64,000 nucleotides of DNA from a virus. A program made the translations under genes and the position numbers. The stretch is from positions 96,001 through 160,000 of IMG/VR virus record IMGVR_UViG_3300027754_005796; one strand, 5' to 3'. Below the pieces are notes generated by a model. The model was not told the origin of the DNA. It worked only from the letters and a program-made list of their open reading frames with translations, and ran no database searches. This document shows positions 1,418 through 41,073 of the stretch, piece after piece (within the stretch, counting starts at the first letter, position 1; each line of letters opens with the position of its first letter).

Positions 1418-2119
1418 ATGGAAAACAAAAACGAAATTGAAGCACAAGGTATGCTTATTCACAATAACCCTTTTCAACAAGTGTCAATTGGAGACACCAC
1501 GATTAACTGGGTTGCTAGTGATGGTGATCCTACCGATGTGAGCGATGCTGTGCTCCAAGGAAATCAAGGGGCCGCTTACTTTGACGATATCGATCAAGGA
1601 GTTGTTTTGACTCCTGCCGCAGATGCAAAGGCTGGTTATCTTTATTGGAATAGAGACTACGATTACACCAGAAGCATTCTAATTGCTGCCACAACCCGTG
1701 CTGGTGGTGGAGATGGTGCTGATGGCATCACCATTTTCTTTGGTGGCGATGATGTATCAAGTATTGACAGCAATGAAGGTGGCATTTCTATTTATATCGA
1801 TGAGTATAATGCCGATGTCATCAAAATATTTAAGTCAGGTTCTCTACTTAATAGTCAGAGTTACCTTGCTCTAAAAACTTTGGATGACAACACTTACAAC
1901 AATTGGGAAGTTGTTTACGAGTATAAAGACTCAGCTAGTATCATCCTTCATCTCAAGATGAATGGCAATTATGTTTTCCGTAAAAACATTGCCACATGGA
2001 CACCAAATGGAACTTTTATTGGTATTTCTGGTGTTTGTGGCAGTAATAACAATGTCCACAGCGTAAAGGCATTCCAAGTGAAAAGTGCAAATGTTTGGCT
2101 TGCTACCAACAAATATTAA
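1418..2119 (+). CDS. L-type lectin/concanavalin A-like domain protein
   Basis: VVLTPA..GYLYW, GGDGADGITIFF and FIGISGVCG motifs of the legume-lectin fold; RBS AGGAG. Confidence 0.65.
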   Translation: MENKNEIEAQGMLIHNNPFQQVSIGDTTINWVASDGDPTDVSDAVLQGNQGAAYFDDIDQGVVLTPAADAKAGYLYWNRDYDYTRSILIAATTRAGGGDGADGITIFFGGDDVSSIDSNEGGISIYIDEYNADVIKIFKSGSLLNSQSYLALKTLDDNTYNNWEVVYEYKDSASIILHLKMNGNYVFRKNIATWTPNGTFIGISGVCGSNNNVHSVKAFQVKSANVWLATNKY

Positions 2120-4247: not shown

Positions 4248-4556
4248 ATGAGTGCGGCAACTGTTGAAGAAACATCGACTACTACCAAGAAGCAGCCCCC
4301 ATATAATGTTGTTTTGCTCAATGATGATGATCATTCGGTAAAGTATGTAGTTAATATGTGCAGCAAGGTCTTCGGCTTTAATGAAAAGCGGGGCATCGAT
4401 GTTGCGACTGAAGTTCATTTTACAGGCAGATGTATTCTGTTCACGGGAAGTTTAGAAGTAGCAGAATTAAAACAAGAACAGGTGCACTCTTTTGGGGTAG
4501 ATCCCCTTGTTCCTAATTGCAAGGGCGGTATGACGGCAATAATTGAACAGGTATAA
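4248..4556 (+). CDS. clpS: ATP-dependent Clp protease adaptor ClpS
   Basis: PPYNVVLLNDDDH, EVHFTGR and LEVAELK motifs; RBS AAGGAG before ATG 4248. Confidence 0.9.
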   Translation: MSAATVEETSTTTKKQPPYNVVLLNDDDHSVKYVVNMCSKVFGFNEKRGIDVATEVHFTGRCILFTGSLEVAELKQEQVHSFGVDPLVPNCKGGMTAIIEQV

Positions 4557-4560
4557 AAAA

Positions 4561-5334
4561 ATGGACCGCAACAAGTTTTTATCGCAAACCACAAACATAG
4601 GAGTTGATACTTACCAAAACAGGTCGAATCTTCTTGATCGTTTCGATTTTGTGCATAGCGAAGAGAGTGGCATTCGTTGCGAACATAGTTTTGCAGATGC
4701 GTATTACATGGCAGATTACATACTGAAAAATCAGTTCTTGCCCGGAAATCTTGCTGAGTTTGGTTGTTTCCAAGGTGGCATGACGATCAAACTCAGCCAT
4801 GTCGCTAAGCTTCTTGGCAAGAAGCTTTTTGTGTTTGATACATTCGAGGGATTGCCAGATTCGGCAGACTATGAACTGCATGACGGTGAAAACCTTTACC
4901 GTAGCGATGGAACCAAAGGATCAGAATTTTATAAAAACCAGTTCGCTTGTTCTCTCGACCAAGTCAAATCTAATATATCCACACATGGTTGTATAGATTC
5001 TTGCGTTTTCCTTAAAGGGTTGCTGGAGGAAACTCTTCCTCTTTTTCACGCAGAACTTTGTTTTGTTTTTATAGATGTCGATTTAATTGAGCCTGCAAGA
5101 TTCGTTGTGAAGCAACTTTGGAATAAAATGACTGGTCATGGCATTTTCACACATGAGGCATGTGTGGTTGAGTATATGAGGGCTATTTGTTGCAAAAAAT
5201 GGTGGCGTGAGAACTTTAGTCAGTATCCACCTAGTCTTGCAAGTCAAAAAATGCAGTATGGCTACGGTTTATTCAGTTCGCATTGCTTAGATTTTCTATT
5301 TAAAAAAGAAATAGATCAAGGAGTTTTTCATTGA
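4561..5334 (+). CDS. TylF/MycF-family sugar O-methyltransferase
   Basis: GNLAEFGCFQGG, FDTFEGLP, KGLLEETLP and FIDVDL motifs. Confidence 0.8.
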   Translation: MDRNKFLSQTTNIGVDTYQNRSNLLDRFDFVHSEESGIRCEHSFADAYYMADYILKNQFLPGNLAEFGCFQGGMTIKLSHVAKLLGKKLFVFDTFEGLPDSADYELHDGENLYRSDGTKGSEFYKNQFACSLDQVKSNISTHGCIDSCVFLKGLLEETLPLFHAELCFVFIDVDLIEPARFVVKQLWNKMTGHGIFTHEACVVEYMRAICCKKWWRENFSQYPPSLASQKMQYGYGLFSSHCLDFLFKKEIDQGVFH

Positions 5335-6380: not shown

Positions 6381-7148
6381 ATGTCCTACTATTGGTGTCT
6401 CATGTATAGAAGTAAAATCTGGTCTATTCCAACCGAAAAATTCAATGAACTTGTTTCAAACTCCACATCTATTGGTCAAATATTAAAGCATTTTGGACTT
6501 AGCAATAAAGGTGGGAATAGCAAGACGGTTCAGAGAAGGGCGCAAATTGAAAATATTGACATCTCACATATAAAGCTAGGTATTAATTCAAACAAAGGAA
6601 GAGTTTTTGGTCATAGAAAAAACCATGATGAAATTTTCAAGGAAAATTCGTCTACTTCAAGAGGAAGTATAAAAGCAAAATTAATAAAATATAACTTGAT
6701 ACCATATGTTTGTAAAATTTGTGGACTTGGAGATAAATGGAATGGTAAAGATATTGCATTACAACTAGATCATGAAAATGGAATTCCAAATGACAACAGA
6801 ATAAAAAATTTAAGGTTTTTGTGTCCTAATTGCCATAGTCAAACTGAAACATTTTCCGGCAAAAGAAATCATGAGTTTATCATTCGTAAAAACAAAGAAT
6901 TGTTAAACCTCAATTGTCAGTATTGCAATATTGTTTTTAAAACATCAAATAATAAGAAAAAATATTGTAGTAAAAGTTGTGTTTCAAAAAAAAGAAAAAA
7001 TAATATTTGTTTAGATAAAAAAACACTAGAGAAAGAAGTTGAGGTGTGCTCAAATATAAAAATTGGAGAAAAATATGGGGTTTCTGAAGCTACTGTAAGA
7101 AATTGGTTAAAGAAATTTGATATTGATCGTAAACAAAAAATTAAATAA
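6381..7148 (+). CDS. HNH homing-type endonuclease with C-terminal HTH
   Basis: CKICG..LQLDHENG..DNRIKNLRFLCPNCHSQT; C-terminal IGEKYGVSEATVRNWLKK HTH. Confidence 0.9.
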   Translation: MSYYWCLMYRSKIWSIPTEKFNELVSNSTSIGQILKHFGLSNKGGNSKTVQRRAQIENIDISHIKLGINSNKGRVFGHRKNHDEIFKENSSTSRGSIKAKLIKYNLIPYVCKICGLGDKWNGKDIALQLDHENGIPNDNRIKNLRFLCPNCHSQTETFSGKRNHEFIIRKNKELLNLNCQYCNIVFKTSNNKKKYCSKSCVSKKRKNNICLDKKTLEKEVEVCSNIKIGEKYGVSEATVRNWLKKFDIDRKQKIK

Positions 7149-7152
7149 GAAA

Positions 7153-7296
7153 ATGCCCGAACAGGACTCGAACCTGTACAAAGAGTGCCATTCCGGGCTA
7201 AAGGAATCGAACCTTTATTTCTTGCTTAGAGCAGGCGTTTTGACCGCTTTAAACTAAGCCCGTAAAACTCTTGTGCTACCATTACACTATCGGGCA
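7153..7296 (-). tRNA. tRNA-Gln(TTG) interrupted in the anticodon by a 73-nt insert
   Basis: 5' half TGCCCGATAGTGTAATGGTAGCACAAGAGTTTT (7296-7264); 3' half TGGCACTCTTTGTACAGGTTCGAGTCCTGTTCGGGCA (7190-7154). Joined, they give a canonical cloverleaf with loop TT-TTG-GC; no encoded CCA. Confidence 0.8.
7191..7263 (-). tRNA. Nested tRNA-like element (CTA in anticodon loop; shortened anticodon arm)
   Basis: A-CGGGCT TA GTTT-AAAGCGGTCA-AAAC G CCTG-CTCTAAG-CAAG AAAT AAAGG-TTCGATT-CCTTT AGCCCG-GAA. Confidence 0.7.
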
Positions 7297-7319
7297 GTCA
7301 TTAAATTGTAAGCGTTAGC

Positions 7320-7348
7320 TTGACAAATTATCAACAGTAATTTATACT
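7320..7348 (+). promoter_or_regulatory. Sigma-70 promoter for tRNA-Arg
   Basis: TTGACA (7320-7325), 17-nt spacer, TATACT (7343-7348). Confidence 0.8.
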
Positions 7349-7362
7349 TTTTTTTGTTAGCT

Positions 7363-7444
7363 GTCGCTGACTCAGAATTGGATACTGAACTGGTCTTCTA
7401 AACCAGCGGTGAAAACCATGTGGGTTCGAGTCCCACCAGCGACA
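7363..7444 (+). tRNA. tRNA-Arg(TCT) with long variable arm
   Basis: GTCGCTG/CAGCGAC acceptor, TCAG/CTGA D-stem, CTGGT-CTTCTAA-ACCAG anticodon arm, GGT-GAAA-ACC variable hairpin, GTGGG-TTCGAGT-CCCAC T-arm. Confidence 0.85.
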
Positions 7445-7660
7445 TTATTCAATGATTCCATAGTGTTTAGCCCACTTGCGAATTGCGTTATCAGAAACAT
7501 CGTACATTTTTGCAATTTGCGTGTATGCAGTAGTGGCTATAAGTTGTTCAAGTTCATTTTTTGTAGGCAGGTTCGGAATTTTGCTCTTGCACTTTTTGCG
7601 AGAAATGTCAAAGTAACGCCTGTCACAGCAGGAGTTAGTCATGTCCGAAGAGCAAATCAA
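7445..7660 (-). pseudogene. Isolated HTH resembling the C-terminus of the HNH nuclease at 6381 (probable remnant)
   Basis: PTKNELEQLI..YTQIAKMYDVSDNAIRKWAKHYGI vs KTLEKEV..NIKIGEKYGVSEATVRNWLKKFDI. Confidence 0.55.
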
Positions 7661-14320: not shown

Positions 14321-17241
14321 GAAATCCTTTTTTACCAATTACTTTCGATTATTTTGAGACAGTTGCCACCGAGGATTTGCCCAAAATAAAGCCTTTGAAT
14401 GGGGAATGGAAAAATTTAGATAATCCTAATGCATATTCTGTTATTTACAATTTTGATGCCACAAAAACCGATCCAAACGATTCCACCAAAATTATAAAAG
14501 ATGTCTGTGGAACAGATCGTCCCGCATATGATGTAAGATTCAGCGGTAATGATTATGGTCATGAAGGAATTAGCATCTCCTTTTACAGATGCGGAAGAAC
14601 AGCAGATCATCCAGAGGGATTTGGGGGATCGGTTTTTCAAGGGGTTCAAAGAGCAATTTATGATTATGTTATGGCCAGAAAGCCATTCGCTTTGAATTGG
14701 ACTCCTGTGTCAAGATCAGATGGACAGGCACGAGAAAGAGAGAGACAAAAGAGCACAAGTTCAAGACATAGAGTTTATGAAATGTTGTCCATAAGTCATT
14801 TGTTTCCCGATTATGTTTCTTATAAACCCAATCATTGGTTGAGAAGAGATTTGTATGAAAAGGTAGCAGCACCAGAGGGTATGCCTCCAGTTGAAGATGA
14901 AATAAAAGTCAATAGTCCTCTTGCCAAAAAAAAAGCAGCGATTAATGATATGCGACAAAAAAGTTCGCAGAAGCTATTGGCAAATGCCAATCTTGCTTCA
15001 GATATAGTAAGTAAAATCAACGAATTTGGAATTCAAATAAAGAATAAAGCTTTAGAGGATATTAAAGCCAAGAGATTAGAAGCTTTGAATTTACAAATAA
15101 ATGACCCTCAACAGAATCCTCATCGCTTAAAAGTTGATGATTTGGTGCATGTCAGTTTGGATTACCCAGAGGCATATAAATCCTATTTAAATGTCGAATC
15201 TAGTCATAGTTCGGTGCAGAAGATGGTGAATTCGGGTCGGGATTACGGCAAAATTGCTGATTTTAAATTTGAAAGTGTGCCTTGGGAAAATGGCAATAAA
15301 GAGATGTTGTTGGCAAAAGTTTTTCTAGTTGATTCGAGTAATGAAGAGCACCATGATGATTCTCAATTTACAGATTATTATATTTGGTTGCCAGCAAACC
15401 TTTTGGAAAAATACGGTCACGAAAAGCGTGAAGGCAAAAGAATGTCACGCTTACAGAAATTACTTGATAACGAAACAGAAAATCCAAAAAGGTTCCAAAT
15501 AGGTCAAGAAATCATTTGTGTTCCAGATGGTAATTATGCTTATAAAGTTAGGAGAAACGCTGATGGTTTCCAAAATGCTGGCGTAGGTGAAAAGTTTAAA
15601 ATTACTGATGCATACATTGATCCGATTAGTGGTTCAATAGATCTAAAAGCAAAATTTTTAGAAAATGTTTTAGAAGCCGAAGTTCCTGATTGGTTAAGCG
15701 CAATAATAAATCCATCTGATGTTGGTGTTTATAGTGATCGGACCATAGGATTTCATCCTAAAGACCGTGCTGTAAAACATGCAAATAGCACATCAATTGC
15801 AAAAGTAAAGATAGACTATAAAAAAGTTTATGACGCACTCAGTCGTCTCGTGGTAGGAGGTGAAAACCGTCTTGGTTTAAAAAAAGGCGACCAAATTGTT
15901 TTTGTAAAATCAGTAGATATTTCAGAAATTGCAAAAAACCTACCCATTGGTCAAATTGGAAAGGTTCATAAGATTATATTAGAAAGTAGCCTAGTTCCAG
16001 ATCAGATAGAAATAGACAATGTCGAATTTATAATTAATTGGACTAACAAAAACATACTTGAAGATGACTCTAGATTTATAGATGTATACGCCGGAATAGG
16101 AAGAACATTAAGTTTGGCGAAAAGCAATGGTAATAAAGACGAAAAATATTCACAAGATGATGTGAGAATTAAAAAACTAAATGAAGAATCGCAGGCTCTT
16201 GTCAAAAATAATTTTGAAAAGATGTATAAGAAATATCAAGAAATTATCAATCAAGAAATGACCAATAGTGCCAACAAATATGGTTTGAAGCCGGGGGACG
16301 AAGTAATTGTGACTTCCAAGAAAAATCCTAAATTTATTTATAATTTTTGTCAACAATATTTAAAGTACATAGGTGTAGGTAAGCTGCTTTCTTTTAAACT
16401 TCAAATTTCATACGATTTTTTAGAAGACCAAAATTACACAAGCGTAAAAGCAGATATCGAATATGATGTAGAAAAAACACAAGCTTTGACTGGACAGAAG
16501 TCAAACAGCAATCGTGGGCTTATCGATGTTGGTTTAGAAGATTGTTTAGATGTCGTGCCTTACAATCCAGCACAAATTCTCAATGTGAAAAATCTATTGC
16601 ACAACATCCAAGTTGTTACAAAAACCAGTAAAACCAAAGACTTTATTGACAGGCAAGTCAACAAATATTATAGTGATGCAGGTGCTTTCCACACAACCGA
16701 TGGCGACAAAATATTTCCTAAGGATGCTATTTTTTACAATGTGAATGATGAATGGCATCGTGGAATATATATTGGAAATAAAAATGAACGCTTGGCGTAT
16801 GTGGCTAAAAATACAAACACACAGTTTGAAGAGGTGCCTTATGAAGACATCAAGTCTGTTAATCCTCAAAAATCAAAAGCAAAAAAATCTTTTTTGAAAC
16901 ATGGCGGTACAGCTTTTCTTCCTACTTCTTCCCCGGATGCAATTTTTGGGATGGTTGGTCTAGCATTAGGAGATCCGGTTGATGTGGTTGCTGGAGAGCA
17001 CGCAAACAAATCTGGACACATTGTAAGCTGGAGGCGTTTACGGGGAGTTCCTTTTGCCAGCCCCTCTGATGGTCGTGGAGATATGGGTGCAGTCATTTCA
17101 ACTTATCCATCGCCTGACAAGCCGAGCGAAACTATCGTTGTCCCAGCATCTTCTCTCAAAAAGAGCGAAACCCTACATAGATTTGAATCTTTTAGCGGTT
17201 TTCTCTCCCTGCTCAACCGTTTTCTTGTTGAAAGACTCTGA
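14305..17241 (+). CDS. Large repeat protein, paralog 3
   Basis: 978 aa; MRNPFLP...ATEDL start shared with paralog 2; LGDPVDVVAGEHANKSGHI. Confidence 0.75.
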   Translation: MEKIMRNPFLPITFDYFETVATEDLPKIKPLNGEWKNLDNPNAYSVIYNFDATKTDPNDSTKIIKDVCGTDRPAYDVRFSGNDYGHEGISISFYRCGRTADHPEGFGGSVFQGVQRAIYDYVMARKPFALNWTPVSRSDGQARERERQKSTSSRHRVYEMLSISHLFPDYVSYKPNHWLRRDLYEKVAAPEGMPPVEDEIKVNSPLAKKKAAINDMRQKSSQKLLANANLASDIVSKINEFGIQIKNKALEDIKAKRLEALNLQINDPQQNPHRLKVDDLVHVSLDYPEAYKSYLNVESSHSSVQKMVNSGRDYGKIADFKFESVPWENGNKEMLLAKVFLVDSSNEEHHDDSQFTDYYIWLPANLLEKYGHEKREGKRMSRLQKLLDNETENPKRFQIGQEIICVPDGNYAYKVRRNADGFQNAGVGEKFKITDAYIDPISGSIDLKAKFLENVLEAEVPDWLSAIINPSDVGVYSDRTIGFHPKDRAVKHANSTSIAKVKIDYKKVYDALSRLVVGGENRLGLKKGDQIVFVKSVDISEIAKNLPIGQIGKVHKIILESSLVPDQIEIDNVEFIINWTNKNILEDDSRFIDVYAGIGRTLSLAKSNGNKDEKYSQDDVRIKKLNEESQALVKNNFEKMYKKYQEIINQEMTNSANKYGLKPGDEVIVTSKKNPKFIYNFCQQYLKYIGVGKLLSFKLQISYDFLEDQNYTSVKADIEYDVEKTQALTGQKSNSNRGLIDVGLEDCLDVVPYNPAQILNVKNLLHNIQVVTKTSKTKDFIDRQVNKYYSDAGAFHTTDGDKIFPKDAIFYNVNDEWHRGIYIGNKNERLAYVAKNTNTQFEEVPYEDIKSVNPQKSKAKKSFLKHGGTAFLPTSSPDAIFGMVGLALGDPVDVVAGEHANKSGHIVSWRRLRGVPFASPSDGRGDMGAVISTYPSPDKPSETIVVPASSLKKSETLHRFESFSGFLSLLNRFLVERL

Positions 17242-35574: not shown

Positions 35575-36528
35575 TTGTTTATGCTTTCTAATTTTGATCG
35601 GTATGAAAAACTCGTTTCTAGCAACTTGAAATCCTTTTGTCACGAGATTTTTGATGATGTGAAGCAAAGGAAGGCTATAACTGCCGAAATGCCCGACTTT
35701 GAGGAATTTCAGAAAGCTACTCAGAAGATACAGAAAGCAAAAAGTGGCAAAATAAATCCAGAAATGCTTCCTTGTTATGAATCGCCTCTTTTGAATAGCC
35801 AACAAGAGCAGCATCTCTTTCGCAAGATGAATTTTTATAAATATAAAGCCAAGCTTGTTTTAAGCACTATAAATTCGCAGAATCCAAATACAATAAAATT
35901 AGAGAATGCCGAAAATTTTGTTGCAAAATACAAGGAAATTAGAAACCTCTTGGCTGAAAGTAATTTCAGACTTGCCACCCAAGTGATGAAACACCGCCAT
36001 ATTTTGCAGAATGAGCAAAATCAGCATGACACCATATTAAGCGATGCGTATTACGATGTTCTAAAGGCTGTTGATTATTTTAACTGGACATTGGGACATA
36101 AGTTTTCAACTTACGCTACTTGGGTAGTGAAGAAAAATTTTTTCCGTGATGCAAAGATGAAGTTCGCACACAACGAAAGGTTGTCATTTTTCAACGATTC
36201 AATTCCAGACATGGAAGACGAAAAGACTAGTGGCTTGGTAGATGAGCGTGATCAACAAAGCCGTCAGACTTTGATTTTCAAATTAATTGGTTTACTTGTA
36301 AAAGAAAATATTGGCACGGATCGCATCAGGCAGGCTTATGTTCTTGAAAATTATTTCGGGGTAAATGGCAGAGAAAAGAAAACTCTTGAAAAAATAAGCG
36401 AAGAAATCGGTGTGACCAAGGAAAGAGTGCGCCAGTTAAAAGAAAAAGGATTGGAATGGATTCGCAGCAGGGTCGCAGTAATGAATTTGGACTATGATAA
36501 CGAAAAACCAGATGAAAGTGTTTTCTAA
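35575..36528 (+). CDS. RNA polymerase sigma-70 family factor
   Basis: LLNSQQEQHLFRKMNF, ESNFRL, KAVDYF..GHKFSTYATW, TLEKISEEIGVTKERVRQL. Confidence 0.9.
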   Translation: MFMLSNFDRYEKLVSSNLKSFCHEIFDDVKQRKAITAEMPDFEEFQKATQKIQKAKSGKINPEMLPCYESPLLNSQQEQHLFRKMNFYKYKAKLVLSTINSQNPNTIKLENAENFVAKYKEIRNLLAESNFRLATQVMKHRHILQNEQNQHDTILSDAYYDVLKAVDYFNWTLGHKFSTYATWVVKKNFFRDAKMKFAHNERLSFFNDSIPDMEDEKTSGLVDERDQQSRQTLIFKLIGLLVKENIGTDRIRQAYVLENYFGVNGREKKTLEKISEEIGVTKERVRQLKEKGLEWIRSRVAVMNLDYDNEKPDESVF

Positions 36529-36563: not shown

Positions 36564-37658
36564 ATGTTCACGCTGGAAGATGCCTATCATGCAGTTGAAG
36601 GTCGTTCTGAGTTTGCAATCAAACTTACAGATAAGACTGTTTGCTTTGACTACATCGTAATTCTTAGTGACACTTTTGTAGCGGGAGATGCATCAAAAAC
36701 AGGTTGGATTCGTCGCAATTTTCGTGGCGTAACATTTTGCCGTGAAACTGGCAAAATGCTAAGTTTGCCTTTTCATAAATTTTTCAATATCAATCAGAAT
36801 TCAGAAACTGATTTCAATTTATATAAAGGAAAAGATGCCACCATCTATGAAAAACTAGATGGAAGTATGGTTCATTTTTACAGGTTGACAGATGGCGCTT
36901 TACAAGCTTCTACCCGTCGCTCTCCTCATTCTACACAAGCTCAGGGTGCTTTGGCTTTTGTTCTTAGTAGTCCAGAGTTGGAGCGCAACATCCTTGAAAC
37001 GATTGATTGCGGTTTCACGCCTATTTTTGAATGGGTCTCGCCTCGTAATCAGATAGTTGTCAGGTATGACCAATGCAGACTGGTGTTCTTAATGTCTCGC
37101 AGCAGGGAGACTGGAAAGTATTTTTTTGAAAATAAGTATTCTGATCGTGCTCTTGAATATCGTTTTAAATTTGCTGAAATATTGCAGAATTTGCATCATT
37201 CTGAATTTGAAGGATATGTTTGTCATTTTGAAAATGGCGACATGCTGAAAGCTAAAACACCTTGGTATTTGGAGAGACATCGTGCTGTTGATGCTCTCAT
37301 GCGTCCCACATACAAGGTTTATGAAGTCGCTTTAGATGGTTTGATGGACGATCTTATTGCCATTTCGGTTGAATCCTACAAAATTCGCTTACAGTCTATT
37401 CATGATGAAGTACAAAAAGATATATTGCAATTAAATTTGCAAATGGAGTCTGTATATCAAGAAATTAATTCTAAAATAGTTTATGATATCAAGTCAAATC
37501 AAAAAGAGCATCGAAAATCTTTTGTGGAGATGGCTAAAACAACAAATTGTTTTTCAGAATTGATGCAGATTTATCAAGGAAAAAATCCAGAAAGTCTTTA
37601 CAAGAAAAAACTTATGGAAAAATACACAGAAATGTATCCAGAAAGATTTTTCAGTTAA
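36564..37658 (+). CDS. T4 Rnl1-like RNA ligase
   Basis: RGVTF, LPFHKFFNIN, YEKLDGS, TPIFEWVSPRNQIV, EGYV, KAKTPWY. Confidence 0.9.
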   Translation: MFTLEDAYHAVEGRSEFAIKLTDKTVCFDYIVILSDTFVAGDASKTGWIRRNFRGVTFCRETGKMLSLPFHKFFNINQNSETDFNLYKGKDATIYEKLDGSMVHFYRLTDGALQASTRRSPHSTQAQGALAFVLSSPELERNILETIDCGFTPIFEWVSPRNQIVVRYDQCRLVFLMSRSRETGKYFFENKYSDRALEYRFKFAEILQNLHHSEFEGYVCHFENGDMLKAKTPWYLERHRAVDALMRPTYKVYEVALDGLMDDLIAISVESYKIRLQSIHDEVQKDILQLNLQMESVYQEINSKIVYDIKSNQKEHRKSFVEMAKTTNCFSELMQIYQGKNPESLYKKKLMEKYTEMYPERFFS

Positions 37659-38756: not shown

Positions 38757-39326
38757 ATGCTCGATAAAGTCAAAAAAACAAAAAATCCCAGAGAAAAAGC
38801 TGAAATTATTTGGGAATTTTATTGTACTCGTAAACTTGTGATGAATTTGGAGCCATCTTGGACTCACCCGTCCTATCATTTAGTTGAAAAATACCTAAAT
38901 AATACCATTCAAAAAAATGAATTGCCCCAGCTTGTTGAGGTTATCAAAAGCCATGAACAGCAAGATGGCAAAGAAGTTCTACAATTCGTAAATCGCCCCT
39001 CTGGGCCTGTCAGAATTATGCATGAGGGTTGGAAGATTGGCAGTCCCACTTGGGTATTTATGGGTCGAAATCTTCATCCAAATGCTACTCAATATCTTGG
39101 CAACGGTTGGATAGCAGTTTGTCGGGAAGTACCCTCAGAACTTTATAAATTGTTTGATCCAAGCATTCCTAACCTTGTATGGATTGCTTATCACCGAGAT
39201 AGATCTATGGCTTTCACAGAGAGTGAAAATTGTATAGGTCCAGCAGTTTTTTATGATGTGTTCATGAAATTAACTGCGAAAATTGCAGGAAAATTGCCTG
39301 AAAATCCAGACCCGAAGGTGAATTGA
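38757..39326 (+). CDS. Hypothetical protein
   Basis: 189-aa ORF. Confidence 0.65.
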   Translation: MLDKVKKTKNPREKAEIIWEFYCTRKLVMNLEPSWTHPSYHLVEKYLNNTIQKNELPQLVEVIKSHEQQDGKEVLQFVNRPSGPVRIMHEGWKIGSPTWVFMGRNLHPNATQYLGNGWIAVCREVPSELYKLFDPSIPNLVWIAYHRDRSMAFTESENCIGPAVFYDVFMKLTAKIAGKLPENPDPKVN

Positions 39327-40009
39327 TGTACACGAATAAAATTTTGGTGAGCAAGGCAGTCCAAGGCTCACAGTTTTGCGATGAGTTTCTTTTAAAAAAT
39401 CCCTATTCTTTAATTTATGTGCTAAGTCACAACAGTAAGGGTGCGGTCGGCATTATGTTGAACGGTCCTAGTATCGGCAAATTAAATTCAATTTATTTAA
39501 AAGATGTGGTTGATGCGCCTGAAGGCCAATATGATAAATTCAAACAAATGTACATGGATGGTGTTTTCAAAGATTTACAGCTTCATCTTGCTGGCCCAAG
39601 AAAAACTAAAGGGGTCTATTTCCTGCACGGTTATGGTGATTCTGCTTGTGTCTTGAAGCCATCTCAGGAGCCGACCTTAAATGATGCTCTCCAAGAAACT
39701 ATTTTTGGCCAGCCTGAAAAATCCAAGAAAAAATATGAAGTGGTTGATGGAGTTTTCTTTGGCACTCCATATACCTTTGCGCACATTGTCGAAAACGATA
39801 GACTTTTAGAAAATAAATACAAGTTTTTCACAGGAGAAACTTGTTGGGTTCCGGGGCAGTTGGAAACTGAGGTTCAAGCTGGCTTCTGGGCCGTGGTTGA
39901 CTACAACTCTGATTATTTTTTTGACCATATAAAATGCGAAAGTTTGGCTCGATCTTATAGAAAAATCGAGCCAAACTTTTTTTCTCGCATCAAACCTTCG
40001 CTAAATTAA
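39326..40009 (+). CDS. YqgE/AlgH (DUF179) family protein
   Basis: [38 protein letters not shown]. Confidence 0.75.
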
Positions 40010-41073
40010 TCCAGAGATACAATCTCGCCACCTTCGGGAGTGCAGATTGATCTCAAGATTAATGTGGTAATTTTATCATTAACAAACTGCACATGCCCAT
40101 CGCCAAAGACTGCGTTGACACCACTTGAATGATAGGAGAAAGGTTCGTCATTGGGACCGCAGTTGTTGAGACTCCAAGGGCAAGTAGTAGGGCCACCTAT
40201 TGGAGATGCATTGTTGTTGATTTTAGCGACTTTGCTGTCGGTTGCTTGGTGGGGGCCAGAAACACCATTGCCAACATCTGGTTCTGCCCAACGATAGTTG
40301 TTTCTCATGCCACTTGGGGAGGCTACGGAGGAACCGCCGTAAGCTTTGTAGTTGGATTTCATGTAAGGACTGATGCTCTCGTGTGATTTGCCAGCATCTT
40401 CAATAATTGCAATTGTGTTGCTTGTGCCGTCCATTACAGCAGCAATGCTTCTGCCGCCTCTGCGAATTACATTCATCCCATTGGTGCTGATGTTTGTGAT
40501 TGTAGGAGGACTGGCTGTTCCAGCGCCAATAACTTCGTAGTGAAGAGTGAGAAGACCCGGAGTTTTGTATAGGTTGCATGTATTGCTGATTGTACAACGG
40601 CAACTTGTGTTTGGGTCGATGTCAACATATGCAACTGGCATGTAATCAACTTGTCCATAGTTTTGGGGATCATTCTTTGAACCAAAAGATGGACAGAGGA
40701 AGGATTTGATAACTTGTTGCCCTGCTCCATTTGCAACATTTGTTGGATGATCATAAGGAATTGTGGTATCGAATAGCTTGGCAGCGTTGTCCTGTTCGAC
40801 ATATGGAAGAATGTGTGTGTAGGTTGAATTTACATCAAAAGTGGTAGACAAATTGGCAGAAAGACCTTCACCGCTTGTTGGCAAGTAGCCCATAGTGCTT
40901 TGATAATTATGAAGAGCCAACCCGATTTGCTTCATGTTGTTACTGCAACTCATTCTGTTTGCAGCCTCCCGTACCTTCTGCACGGCTGGGACCAGTAAAC
41001 CTACCAATACGGCGATAATTGCAATTACGACCAATAGTTCAATAAGCGTAAAAGCTTTTCTTTTTGCGTTCAT
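40006..41073 (-). CDS. DUF1559 prepilin-type N-terminal cleavage/methylation protein (H-X9-DG C-terminus)
   Basis: [53 protein letters not shown]; DGTSNT; [16 protein letters not shown]. Confidence 0.95.

Follow-up and report, generated by a model that had tools for sequence, protein, structure and literature searches.

Why should a phage tRNA gene carry a second, tRNA-shaped element in the middle of its anticodon? The gene that raises this question lies on the minus strand (positions 7296-7153) of a 64,000-nucleotide stretch of viral DNA, in the following called the window (positions 96,001 to 160,000 of IMG/VR virus record IMGVR_UViG_3300027754_005796; the record is 172.8 kilobases (kb) long, has a GC content of 40% and is about 40% complete according to CheckV). 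It comprises the entire body of a tRNA-Gln(UUG) but is 144 nucleotides long, including a 73-nucleotide insert that folds like a tRNA. By the textbook, introns of bacterial and phage tRNAs are group I ribozymes, and protein-dependent tRNA splicing is regarded as a matter of archaea and eukaryotes. We propose that the insert is a protein-dependent intron that would be excised by RNase P and RNase Z, with the exons sealed by an RNA ligase of the phage (Rnl1), and that may have spread by collaborative homing with a neighbouring HNH endonuclease; the enzymatic steps are read from the DNA, and we estimate the probability of the complete model at roughly 55%. There are precedents for the architecture: Lak megaphages, which have a T4-type RNA ligase, possess tRNAs with "enigmatic" introns, one of which "may encode a tRNA" (Devoto et al. 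2019, PMC6784885, Fig. 4, Table S6), and introns in jumbo-phage tRNAs "could encode another tRNA" according to a survey from 2026 (PMC13037316). A preliminary description of the locus, made from the sequence without database searches, had named a nested-tRNA prediction for Lak megaphages as a possible precedent, and this precedent is real.

An interrupted tRNA-Gln(UUG) gene

The outer gene starts with TGCCCGA and finishes with TCGGGCA plus one T. All of its stems are perfect: the acceptor stem has 7 base pairs including U1:A72, the D stem 4, the anticodon stem 5 and the T stem 5. Between AGAGT and ACTCT, which form the anticodon stem, there are 80 nucleotides instead of 7. The 5' exon (7264-7296, minus strand) provides the 5' strand of the acceptor stem, the D arm, the 5' strand of the anticodon stem and U32 U33 U34; the 3' exon (7153-7190, minus strand) provides U35 G36 G37 C38, the 3' strand of the anticodon stem, the variable loop, the T arm and the 3' strand of the acceptor stem, and ends with a U as discriminator (7153), with no encoded CCA. 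The insertion point is between U34 and U35, within the anticodon. Coordinates and strand had been given exactly in the preliminary description.

Several tRNAs can be read from this arrangement. ARAGORN in intron mode treats 7153-7296 as one single tRNA with a 73-nucleotide intron and names it Val(tac). There are eight joins that leave a 7-nucleotide loop after deletion of 73 nucleotides, with His(AUG), Gln(UUG), Leu(UAG) or Val(UAC) as the outcome; Gln(UUG) is obtained from one of the eight, the removal of 7263-7191, and the sequence joined in this way in silico is called Gln(ttg) by ARAGORN. The outer gene is assigned as Gln(UUG) with an insert at position 34/35 because homologues decide among the joins (contigs and loci fetched for comparison are labelled with L-numbers). 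The joined arm AGAGT-TTTTGGC-ACTCT is identical (17/17 positions) to the anticodon arm of an uninterrupted tRNA-Gln(TTG) that was found in a metagenome scan (L075). Over the complete tRNA, 62/71 positions are identical to L075, with the differences in stems being compensated (for example G2:C71 versus A2:U71), and 61/71 are identical to L001. The first 29 nucleotides of the outer gene match exactly to uninterrupted tRNA-Gln(TTG) genes on four IMG/VR contigs (L001-L004), and the U1:A72 pair is common to all tRNA-Gln homologues compared. The Val(tac) label presumes the canonical 37/38 intron site and was dropped, as the homologues are Gln; the His(AUG) and Leu(UAG) joins were dropped for the same reason and also because of U1:A72 and the missing G-1. 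Thus, the outer gene without 7263-7191 is, as far as can be judged from its sequence, a canonical tRNA-Gln(UUG). The preliminary description had favoured the same join, TT-TTG-GC, and had regarded joins with TAG or ATG as fitting worse: the loop of the uninterrupted L075 homologue is precisely TT-TTG-GC, and Leu(UAG) and His(AUG) are contradicted by the evidence just given. It had also suggested running ARAGORN on the intact and the insert-deleted sequence, with the result described above, and searching relatives for an uninterrupted allele, which exists (L075; L001-L004; L084-L087, see below).

A putative sigma-70-like promoter, recognised by consensus match only, is positioned on the minus strand at 7305-7334 (TTGATA, 18-nucleotide spacer, TACAAT), its -10 hexamer stops 8 nucleotides ahead of the first base of the outer tRNA, and a T-rich tail follows the last base. 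The predicted fold of the 144-nucleotide RNA (-46.1 kcal/mol, z = -2.35) has the outer arms as well as the inner acceptor and T arms all intact.

The insert resembles a disabled tRNA-Arg

The insert (7191-7263, minus strand, 73 nucleotides) was recognised by ARAGORN and by the Rfam tRNA model, and its boundaries were set by comparison with L075. When ARAGORN is run without introns, the inner tRNA(cta) at 7191-7264 is the sole call at the locus. The Rfam tRNA model (RF00005) scores 45.2 bits on 7192-7263, with a cut-off of 29, and the homologous inserts of L081 and L083, introduced below, score 45.8 and 46.8 bits. The 5' boundary of the insert, A7263, is nucleotide +1 of the inner tRNA and position 1 of the Rfam model; the 3' end consists of the discriminator A73 plus one further A (A74), with no CCA. 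U8, the GG of the D-loop and a T arm (AAAGG-TTCGATT-CCTTT) are all present. As the preliminary description had noted, the first pair of the inner cloverleaf is an A1:G72 mismatch and the anticodon arm is short and mismatched: it has 15 nucleotides instead of 17 and can be drawn either with a 5-nucleotide loop (UCUAA) closed by a C-G pair or with a 7-nucleotide loop on three Watson-Crick pairs.

Among about 550 tRNAs in the fetched loci, the insert has one relative, a tRNA-Arg(TCT) of L026, with 79% identity over 61 nucleotides (E 3e-8) and a C.A mismatch in common. The alignment has a 2-nucleotide gap exactly in the anticodon loop (CUUCUAA in L026 versus UCUAA in the insert). On this alignment the insert is best described as a disabled tRNA-Arg(UCU) derivative that has lost two nucleotides of its anticodon loop. 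Because of the 2-nucleotide gap, the "CUA" results from reading a shortened Arg loop out of register, and the call of a CUA amber suppressor is probably an artefact.

This bears on a different explanation of the locus: the inner element could function as a tRNA, as an amber suppressor (CUA) or with an Arg-type identity, and be set free for translation, where it might for instance decode UAG in late genes, with the outer halves serving as leader and trailer or as a second product. The ARAGORN call tRNA(cta) and the 45 bits on the Rfam tRNA model are consistent with it, as is the CUA triplet that all three variants of the insert have retained; phages with UAG recoding do carry CUA suppressors (PMC13037316), and about 60% of the genome is unseen. 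The anticodon arm argues against it. The inner element offers no 5-base-pair stem with a 7-nucleotide loop and a non-Watson-Crick 32:38 combination: when a 7-nucleotide loop is forced on the 15-nucleotide arm by opening the C-G pair, positions 32 and 38 are a Watson-Crick pair (C32:G38) and only three Watson-Crick stem pairs are left. The L083 insert has a C at the would-be universal U33, position 28:42 is mismatched in all inserts (C.A, C.U or U.U), and the alignment to tRNA-Arg(UCU) implies the loop deletion. The coding sequences do not call for a suppressor either. No signal of TAG, TGA or TAA recoding was found in the 173 kb of the record by open reading frame (ORF) coverage, in-frame stop merges, read-through extensions or Pfam domains: ORF coverage is 93% under the standard code, ORF pairs joined by TAG are no commoner than those joined by TGA or TAA, no Pfam domain of the 173-kb record spans a TAG, and of the 238 predicted genes, 35 end in TAG, often followed shortly by a further stop codon. 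We consider a working inner tRNA very improbable, and the amber-suppressor-like role that the preliminary description had offered is not upheld.

Known classes of introns do not account for the insert. A group I intron (RF00028) was excluded: there is no match between 6500 and 8000 at E values up to 1, the insert ends in A, and the same search does detect the family at the same site in related loci (L088, L089 and L108), in agreement with the earlier impression that the element does not resemble a group I intron. No match of the insert to any other ribozyme family was found in Rfam. An archaeal-type intron was excluded as well, as the folded RNA has no bulge-helix-bulge motif (two 3-nucleotide bulges flanking a 4-base-pair helix) at the exon-insert junctions; the order of elements there is outer anticodon stem, 1x4 internal loop and inner acceptor helix. 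An insert that does not self-splice by the group I route must rely on proteins for its removal.

An exact search of IMG/VR with the inner T arm plus acceptor gave 0 matches, and a gapped pattern for interrupted tRNAs with the same D arm gave 50 matches in IMG/VR, mostly tandem tRNAs, none of which is the insert. Blastn found no relative of the region among the INPHARED phages. The 29-mer of the 5' exon is absent from the GTDB genomes, and no cellular source or host was found there.

The nested gene recurs in three genomic contexts and is conserved

The same nested gene is present in five further independent assemblies: L063 (ENA), L081 (JGI), L082 and L083 (both Logan) and one more contig from ENA and JGI that was listed as a match, without DNA. 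Overall, there are three genomic contexts, the first represented by the window and L063, the second by L081 and L082 and the third by L083. The nested gene is not an assembly artefact, judged by this recurrence, and the possibility of an assembly chimera, which the preliminary description had left standing, is countered by the identical architecture in independent ENA, JGI and Logan assemblies. Everywhere, the nested gene adjoins a gene for an HNH homing endonuclease or its remnant. L063 is syntenic with the window (a large neighbour protein is 77% identical, and the records are 84-93% identical at the nucleotide level); a scan of IMG/VR with the 967-amino-acid neighbour protein identified no relative. 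The tRNA cluster of L081 and L082 reads Lys, Thr, HNH, Gln, Asn ... Ile, Leu, and in both L081 and L083 the outer tRNA-Gln abuts tRNA-Asn with zero spacer, inside a tRNA operon.

Sequence conservation was compared between the window, L081 and L083. The exons are 97-100% identical, with 0-2 of 71 positions differing, both in loops, and the insert is 93-96% identical, with 3-5 of 73 positions differing, whereas the adjoining HNH gene and the flanks are only 77-80% identical at the nucleotide level. At the divergence of HNH gene and flanks, about 29 changes would be expected in the 144 nucleotides of the nested gene; 5 are observed. Of the six variable sites of the insert, the D and T loops hold three and the anticodon loop one, and the remaining two are the partners of the permanently mismatched 28:42; none of the six is among the 38 Watson-Crick-paired positions (C(35,6)/C(73,6) = 0.0095). 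The conserved part of the insert is the framework of acceptor, D and T arms, while the anticodon arm drifts. Exons and insert both appear to be under purifying selection. The preliminary description had named stem-disrupting changes in homologues as a finding that would speak against it; the changes in L081 and L083 affect loops or a standing mismatch. With its conservation across contexts and with intronless syntenic relatives, the insert behaves as a conserved optional intron and not as debris.

Conservation could also be explained by recent spread. It is conceivable that the outer tRNA-Gln is a dead gene, disrupted by accident or as immunity against the endonuclease, that no splicing takes place, that the tRNA-Gln of the host is used and that the similarity between the loci reflects recent horizontal homing rather than selection. 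Homing endonuclease cassettes are known to spread horizontally, and there is one trace of such an event: about 430 nucleotides (7079-7510 of the window, 8126-8560 of L063) are 100% identical, while identity elsewhere is 84-93%. Within this block lie the two tRNA genes with the divergent promoters, the intergenic DNA and the 3' ends of the two endonuclease ORFs, and it looks like a recent gene-conversion (homing) tract. Recent horizontal spread alone is however insufficient to explain the conservation, because the HNH gene, part of the same cassette and only 1-5 nucleotides away, is far more diverged: it differs by 20-27% across the window, L081 and L083, while the exons have changed by 0-2 nucleotides over the same span with all stems kept. 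Also, the outer tRNA of L081 and L083 abuts tRNA-Asn within a tRNA operon, and what relatives have at the same site is not a lesion but a group I intron that can be spliced (see below). On balance we regard a dead tRNA-Gln gene as unlikely, and it is quite probable, on the comparative evidence, that the insert is a conserved intron-like element that is removed from the RNA.

Group I introns occupy the same position in related tRNA-Gln genes

In three related loci (L088, L089 and L108), tRNA-Gln(UUG) is split at the same position, 34/35, by a group I intron of 195-202 nucleotides. The RF00028 scores are 65.5, 44.9 and 53.7 bits, respectively, with a cut-off of 50, so that L089 is below it. In all three, the 5' exon ends in U and the intron ends in G, and a full-length HNH gene (45-46% identical) is present in the same convergent layout. 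In L092, the same anticodon loop holds a 45-nucleotide mini-tRNA, an acceptor and T-arm minihelix that runs from +1 to GCCA. The presence of two unrelated intron types at one nucleotide position argues that the tRNA-shaped insert serves as an intron, and this role implies removal from the RNA.

Other interrupted tRNAs were observed in the fetched loci. A tRNA next to an HNH relative (L100:1333-1432, plus strand) has a 26-nucleotide hairpin insert in its anticodon loop; ARAGORN assigns it as Lys(ttt) but the loop sequence could be Gln. L037 and L047 have, at about 1505-1636 (plus strand), a tRNA with an insert of about 61 nucleotides that is closed by a CTATC/GATAG stem. In the regions L016:8944 and L057:8401 (minus strand), whole tRNAs ending in CCA (Glu and Asn, or Ser) come after the 5' half of a tRNA having the same D arm; these arrangements may be deeper nesting or attachment-site duplications. 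A second "intron tRNA" called by ARAGORN outside the window (C1:49236-50614, 1.28-kb intron) was rejected as a probable false positive: its stems are mismatched and its isotype shifts with context (Ala or Pro).

The adjoining HNH endonuclease and possible collaborative homing

The gene next to the split tRNA encodes a free-standing HNH homing endonuclease of 255 amino acids with a C-terminal HTH (6381-7148, plus strand). It matches phrog_10822 over its full length (6e-47); Pfam matches to HNH and HTH are weak. The gene is convergent with the split tRNA and its stop codon is 5 nucleotides away from the 3' end of the tRNA (1 nucleotide in L081). On the other side of the locus, the remnant of a further endonuclease is encoded on the minus strand (7445-7660, 71 amino acids): it corresponds only to the C-terminal HTH part of the same HNH families and aligns to residues 123-174 of 183 of phrog_15471 and 186-244 of 245 of phrog_10822. 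The preliminary description had read the tRNA and its insert in a way that is in part supported by the data presented here; the adjacent endonuclease it had missed.

This neighbour appears to be the key to the presence of the insert. The HNH family has more than 1,100 members and is found in at least 565 IMG/VR loci, of which 80 were examined. A tRNA gene is present within 1.5 kb of the HNH relative in 75 of these 80 loci, and in 29 of the 80 the nearest tRNA is Gln(UUG). The closest homologues of the window endonuclease (73% and 68% amino acid identity) are the ones that adjoin the same nested tRNA in L081 and L083. Within the convergent layout, an intron is present in 6/6 loci that have a full-length HNH and absent in 11/11 that have a short one, the loci not being phylogenetically independent. 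Alleles with and without each component exist. In L063, the endonuclease gene is gone except for the last 70 nucleotides and the insert is retained; L084-L087, syntenic with L081 (68-83% nucleotide identity across aligned segments), have a 166-amino-acid HNH protein without the HTH tail and an intronless tRNA-Gln(UUG). An endonuclease that adjoins an intron-bearing gene, together with intron-minus alleles (L084-L087) and an allele that is endonuclease-minus and intron-plus (L063), has, from sequence and by analogy, the signature of collaborative homing, with tRNA-Gln as the likely target. The intron and the free-standing HNH gene would spread jointly: the endonuclease would cut tRNA-Gln alleles that have no intron, in the anticodon or close to it, and the insert would shield the resident copy.

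The final 20-28 nucleotides or so of short HNH ORFs (166-183 amino acids) overlap the 3' end of the convergent tRNA-Gln gene, which is encoded on the other strand. This overlap of HNH and tRNA-Gln recurs in L084-L087, L091, L117, L122, L132, L142-L144 and L161.

A putative splicing route with RNase P, RNase Z and Rnl1

A candidate for the enzyme that seals the exons is encoded in the window: a T4 Rnl1-type RNA ligase of 364 amino acids (36564-37658, plus strand; PF09511 59.5 bits; phrog_562 1.9e-56). Residues 54-344 align to residues 55-353 of T4 Rnl1 (2c5u; E 2e-23), covering both domains, and the nucleotidyltransferase motifs of the Rnl1 family are kept: I, KxDG (EKLDGS versus TKEDGS), IV, EGYV, and V, KxK (LKAKT versus FKIKS). 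Neither RtcB, a Pnkp-type kinase/phosphatase nor a CCA-adding enzyme was detected in the 173 kb. The one complete record with a group I version of the intron (230 kb; n = 1) has no Rnl1; the other four of the five records with other intron types are only 9-43% complete and thus uninformative on Rnl1. Cleavage by RNase P gives the leader a 3'-OH and cleavage by RNase Z gives the trailer a 5'-phosphate; T4 Rnl1 joins nicks with exactly these ends, 3'-OH and 5'-phosphate, in the anticodon loops of tRNAs. The insert has retained the acceptor, D and T arms, the parts of a tRNA that are recognised by tRNA-processing enzymes.

From this, a route can be proposed, and the removal by tRNA end-processing enzymes that the preliminary description had suggested is plausible. 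The transcript of about 150 nucleotides would fold as a cloverleaf within a cloverleaf. RNase P would cut 5' of the inner +1 (7264|7263), leaving a 5' exon that ends in U34 with a 3'-OH, and an RNase Z-type cut at the 3' end of the inner tRNA (7191|7190) would leave a 3' exon that starts at U35 with a 5'-phosphate. The exon halves would be held together by the outer acceptor and anticodon stems, and the phage Rnl1 would seal the nick with no need for end-healing. The expected ligation product is ...GAGUUUU|UGGCACUC... and the mature tRNA-Gln would have 71 nucleotides.

Several observations weigh against this reading. RNase Z normally cuts after position 73 and the insert ends at A74, one nucleotide past this site; a cut after 73 would yield an anticodon loop of 8 nucleotides. 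The alternative register of ARAGORN, in which U34 pairs with A73, mends the 3' side and breaks the 5' side. (As a speculation, pairing of U33/U34 with A74/A73 might extend the inner acceptor helix and shift the cut.) Large phages commonly encode Rnl1 for the repair of tRNAs, and its presence is not specific. As the record is about 40% complete, little weight can be given to the absence of Pnkp. The variants of the insert show no compensatory double substitutions, and the support from its evolution is conservation only. The 6/6 and 11/11 loci in which HNH length and intron agree are not phylogenetically independent. Many full-length HNH relatives adjoin an intronless tRNA-Gln (with the tRNA upstream, on the same strand), indicating that an intron is not generally required next to this HNH family.

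The 1-nucleotide misfit with the canonical RNase Z site raises the possibility that the insert is removed by neither RNase P nor RNase Z, but by an unrecognised phage endonuclease or by self-cleavage, followed by ligation by Rnl1 or by the host. A 1-nucleotide offset between predicted and alignment-derived intron is also found in Devoto et al. (PMC6784885). On the other hand, the conserved features are the acceptor stem, the T arm, the GG of the D-loop and the T loop, that is, the determinants for RNase P and RNase Z; the 5' boundary is exactly the inner +1, the L092 insert runs from +1 to CCA, and the insert matches no ribozyme family. Removal without the two processing enzymes is therefore improbable in our view; for the specific combination of RNase P, RNase Z and Rnl1, which we infer from the determinants and the ligase, the odds are a little short of even.

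Neighbouring genes

A divergent tRNA-Arg(UCU) gene was identified by ARAGORN and Rfam upstream of the split tRNA (7362-7445, plus strand; promoter-like site at 7320-7348). It has a long, class-II-like variable arm (GGTGAAAACC hairpin), ARAGORN draws its acceptor stem with 8 base pairs, and it is 100% identical in L063. Extra variable arms are also found in tRNA-Gln genes by HNH relatives (L095, L097, L101, L115 and L127; 83-88 nucleotides); such arms are unusual for Arg and Gln.

Immediately upstream of the Rnl1 gene, a sigma-70-like factor is encoded (35575-36528, plus strand), and an AlgH-like (DUF179) protein is encoded near the Rnl1 gene (39323-40009, plus strand). L063 encodes ClpS and the peptidyl-tRNA hydrolase PTH2 (4463-4771 and 16074-16478). 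ClpS, PTH2, the sigma factor and the AlgH-like protein indicate that this phage lineage invests in translation and RNA functions. A further gene (40006-41073, minus strand) encodes a DUF1559 (SBP_bac_10) protein with an N-terminal prepilin-type methylation motif. The DUF1559 family is expanded mainly in Planctomycetota and Verrucomicrobiota, and the protein may be a hint at the host.

Comparison with known systems

Like the introns of Lak megaphages, the insert is located in an anticodon loop, folds like a tRNA, is highly conserved, is missing from some alleles and occurs in a phage with a T4-type RNA ligase; a 1-nucleotide ambiguity of the boundary is common to both. Here as there, removal restores a canonical tRNA, and the insert starts at +1 of the acceptor and has a T arm with a GTTCRANYC-type loop. 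The CCA tail at the 3' end of several of the described cases is absent: the window insert ends with A73-A74. The interrupted tRNA is Gln and not Thr, Tyr, Phe or Gly as in Lak, the phage is an unrelated environmental one with 40% GC and no sign of TAG recoding, and the insert is, unlike in Lak, a full four-arm tRNA-Arg derivative without CCA. Neither the linkage to an HNH gene nor the equivalence with the group I site is found in PMC6784885 or PMC13037316, and our literature search found no paper that proposes, tests or demonstrates a mechanism for tRNA-shaped phage introns. What is new at this locus is thus the full-size tRNA-Arg-derived insert without CCA in a tRNA-Gln, in a phage with no sign of stop-codon recoding, the equivalence with the group I site, the linkage to a tRNA-Gln-associated HNH gene and the evidence against the CUA suppressor call.

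With group I tRNA introns (RF00028), the insert has the niche in common to the nucleotide, in homologous tRNA-Gln genes and next to homologous HNH genes; it differs in its size of 73 nucleotides and in having no ribozyme core. Documented examples of collaborative homing are F-CphI with the psbA intron of cyanophage S-PM2 (PMC6083498) and T4 mobE with the nrdB intron and I-TevIII (PMC2790892). A free-standing endonuclease next to an intron-containing gene and intronless alleles in relatives are found in these systems as well as here; unlike with F-CphI and mobE, the intron is tRNA-shaped and not group I, and cleavage of the intronless allele is assumed.

Other likenesses concern the proposed enzymes. 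The ligase belongs to the same family as in the repair of PrrC-cut tRNA-Lys by T4 Rnl1 and Pnkp and the nick would be in the anticodon loop, 1 nucleotide from the PrrC site, but a nick made by tRNA processing would already bear 3'-OH and 5'-phosphate, with no need for Pnkp. Archaeal and eukaryal tRNA splicing (with RtcB or Trl1) likewise depends on proteins for cutting and ligation; here, there is no bulge-helix-bulge, the site is 34/35 rather than 37/38, and the system is phage-borne and bacterial. Finally, an embedded tRNA-like fold that is a signal for RNase P and RNase Z is known from tRNA punctuation (mitochondrial transcripts, MALAT1/mascRNA). To our knowledge, re-ligation of the flanks has not been shown for punctuation processing.

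Implications

We tentatively suggest, at somewhat less than even odds, that phage tRNAs can have, besides group I introns, a second and functionally interchangeable kind of intron, which would be excised by RNase P and RNase Z, with the exons joined by Rnl1, and may be selected both as a shield against, and as a hitch-hiker with, an HNH endonuclease. Such inserts may exist because they protect against a homing endonuclease with tRNA-Gln as its target and move together with it. For metagenomic predictions of genetic codes it matters that calls of "suppressor tRNA(CUA)" in phage tRNA genes can be artefacts of degenerate introns. The locus provides a concrete case on which splicing by RNase P, RNase Z and a ligase can be tested, and the module is small (about 150 nucleotides of RNA and one ligase), making reconstitution in vitro conceivable. 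If the model is true, T4-type RNA ligases would gain a role beyond the repair of nuclease damage, and the bacterial world would have its first pathway of tRNA splicing by enzymes alone.

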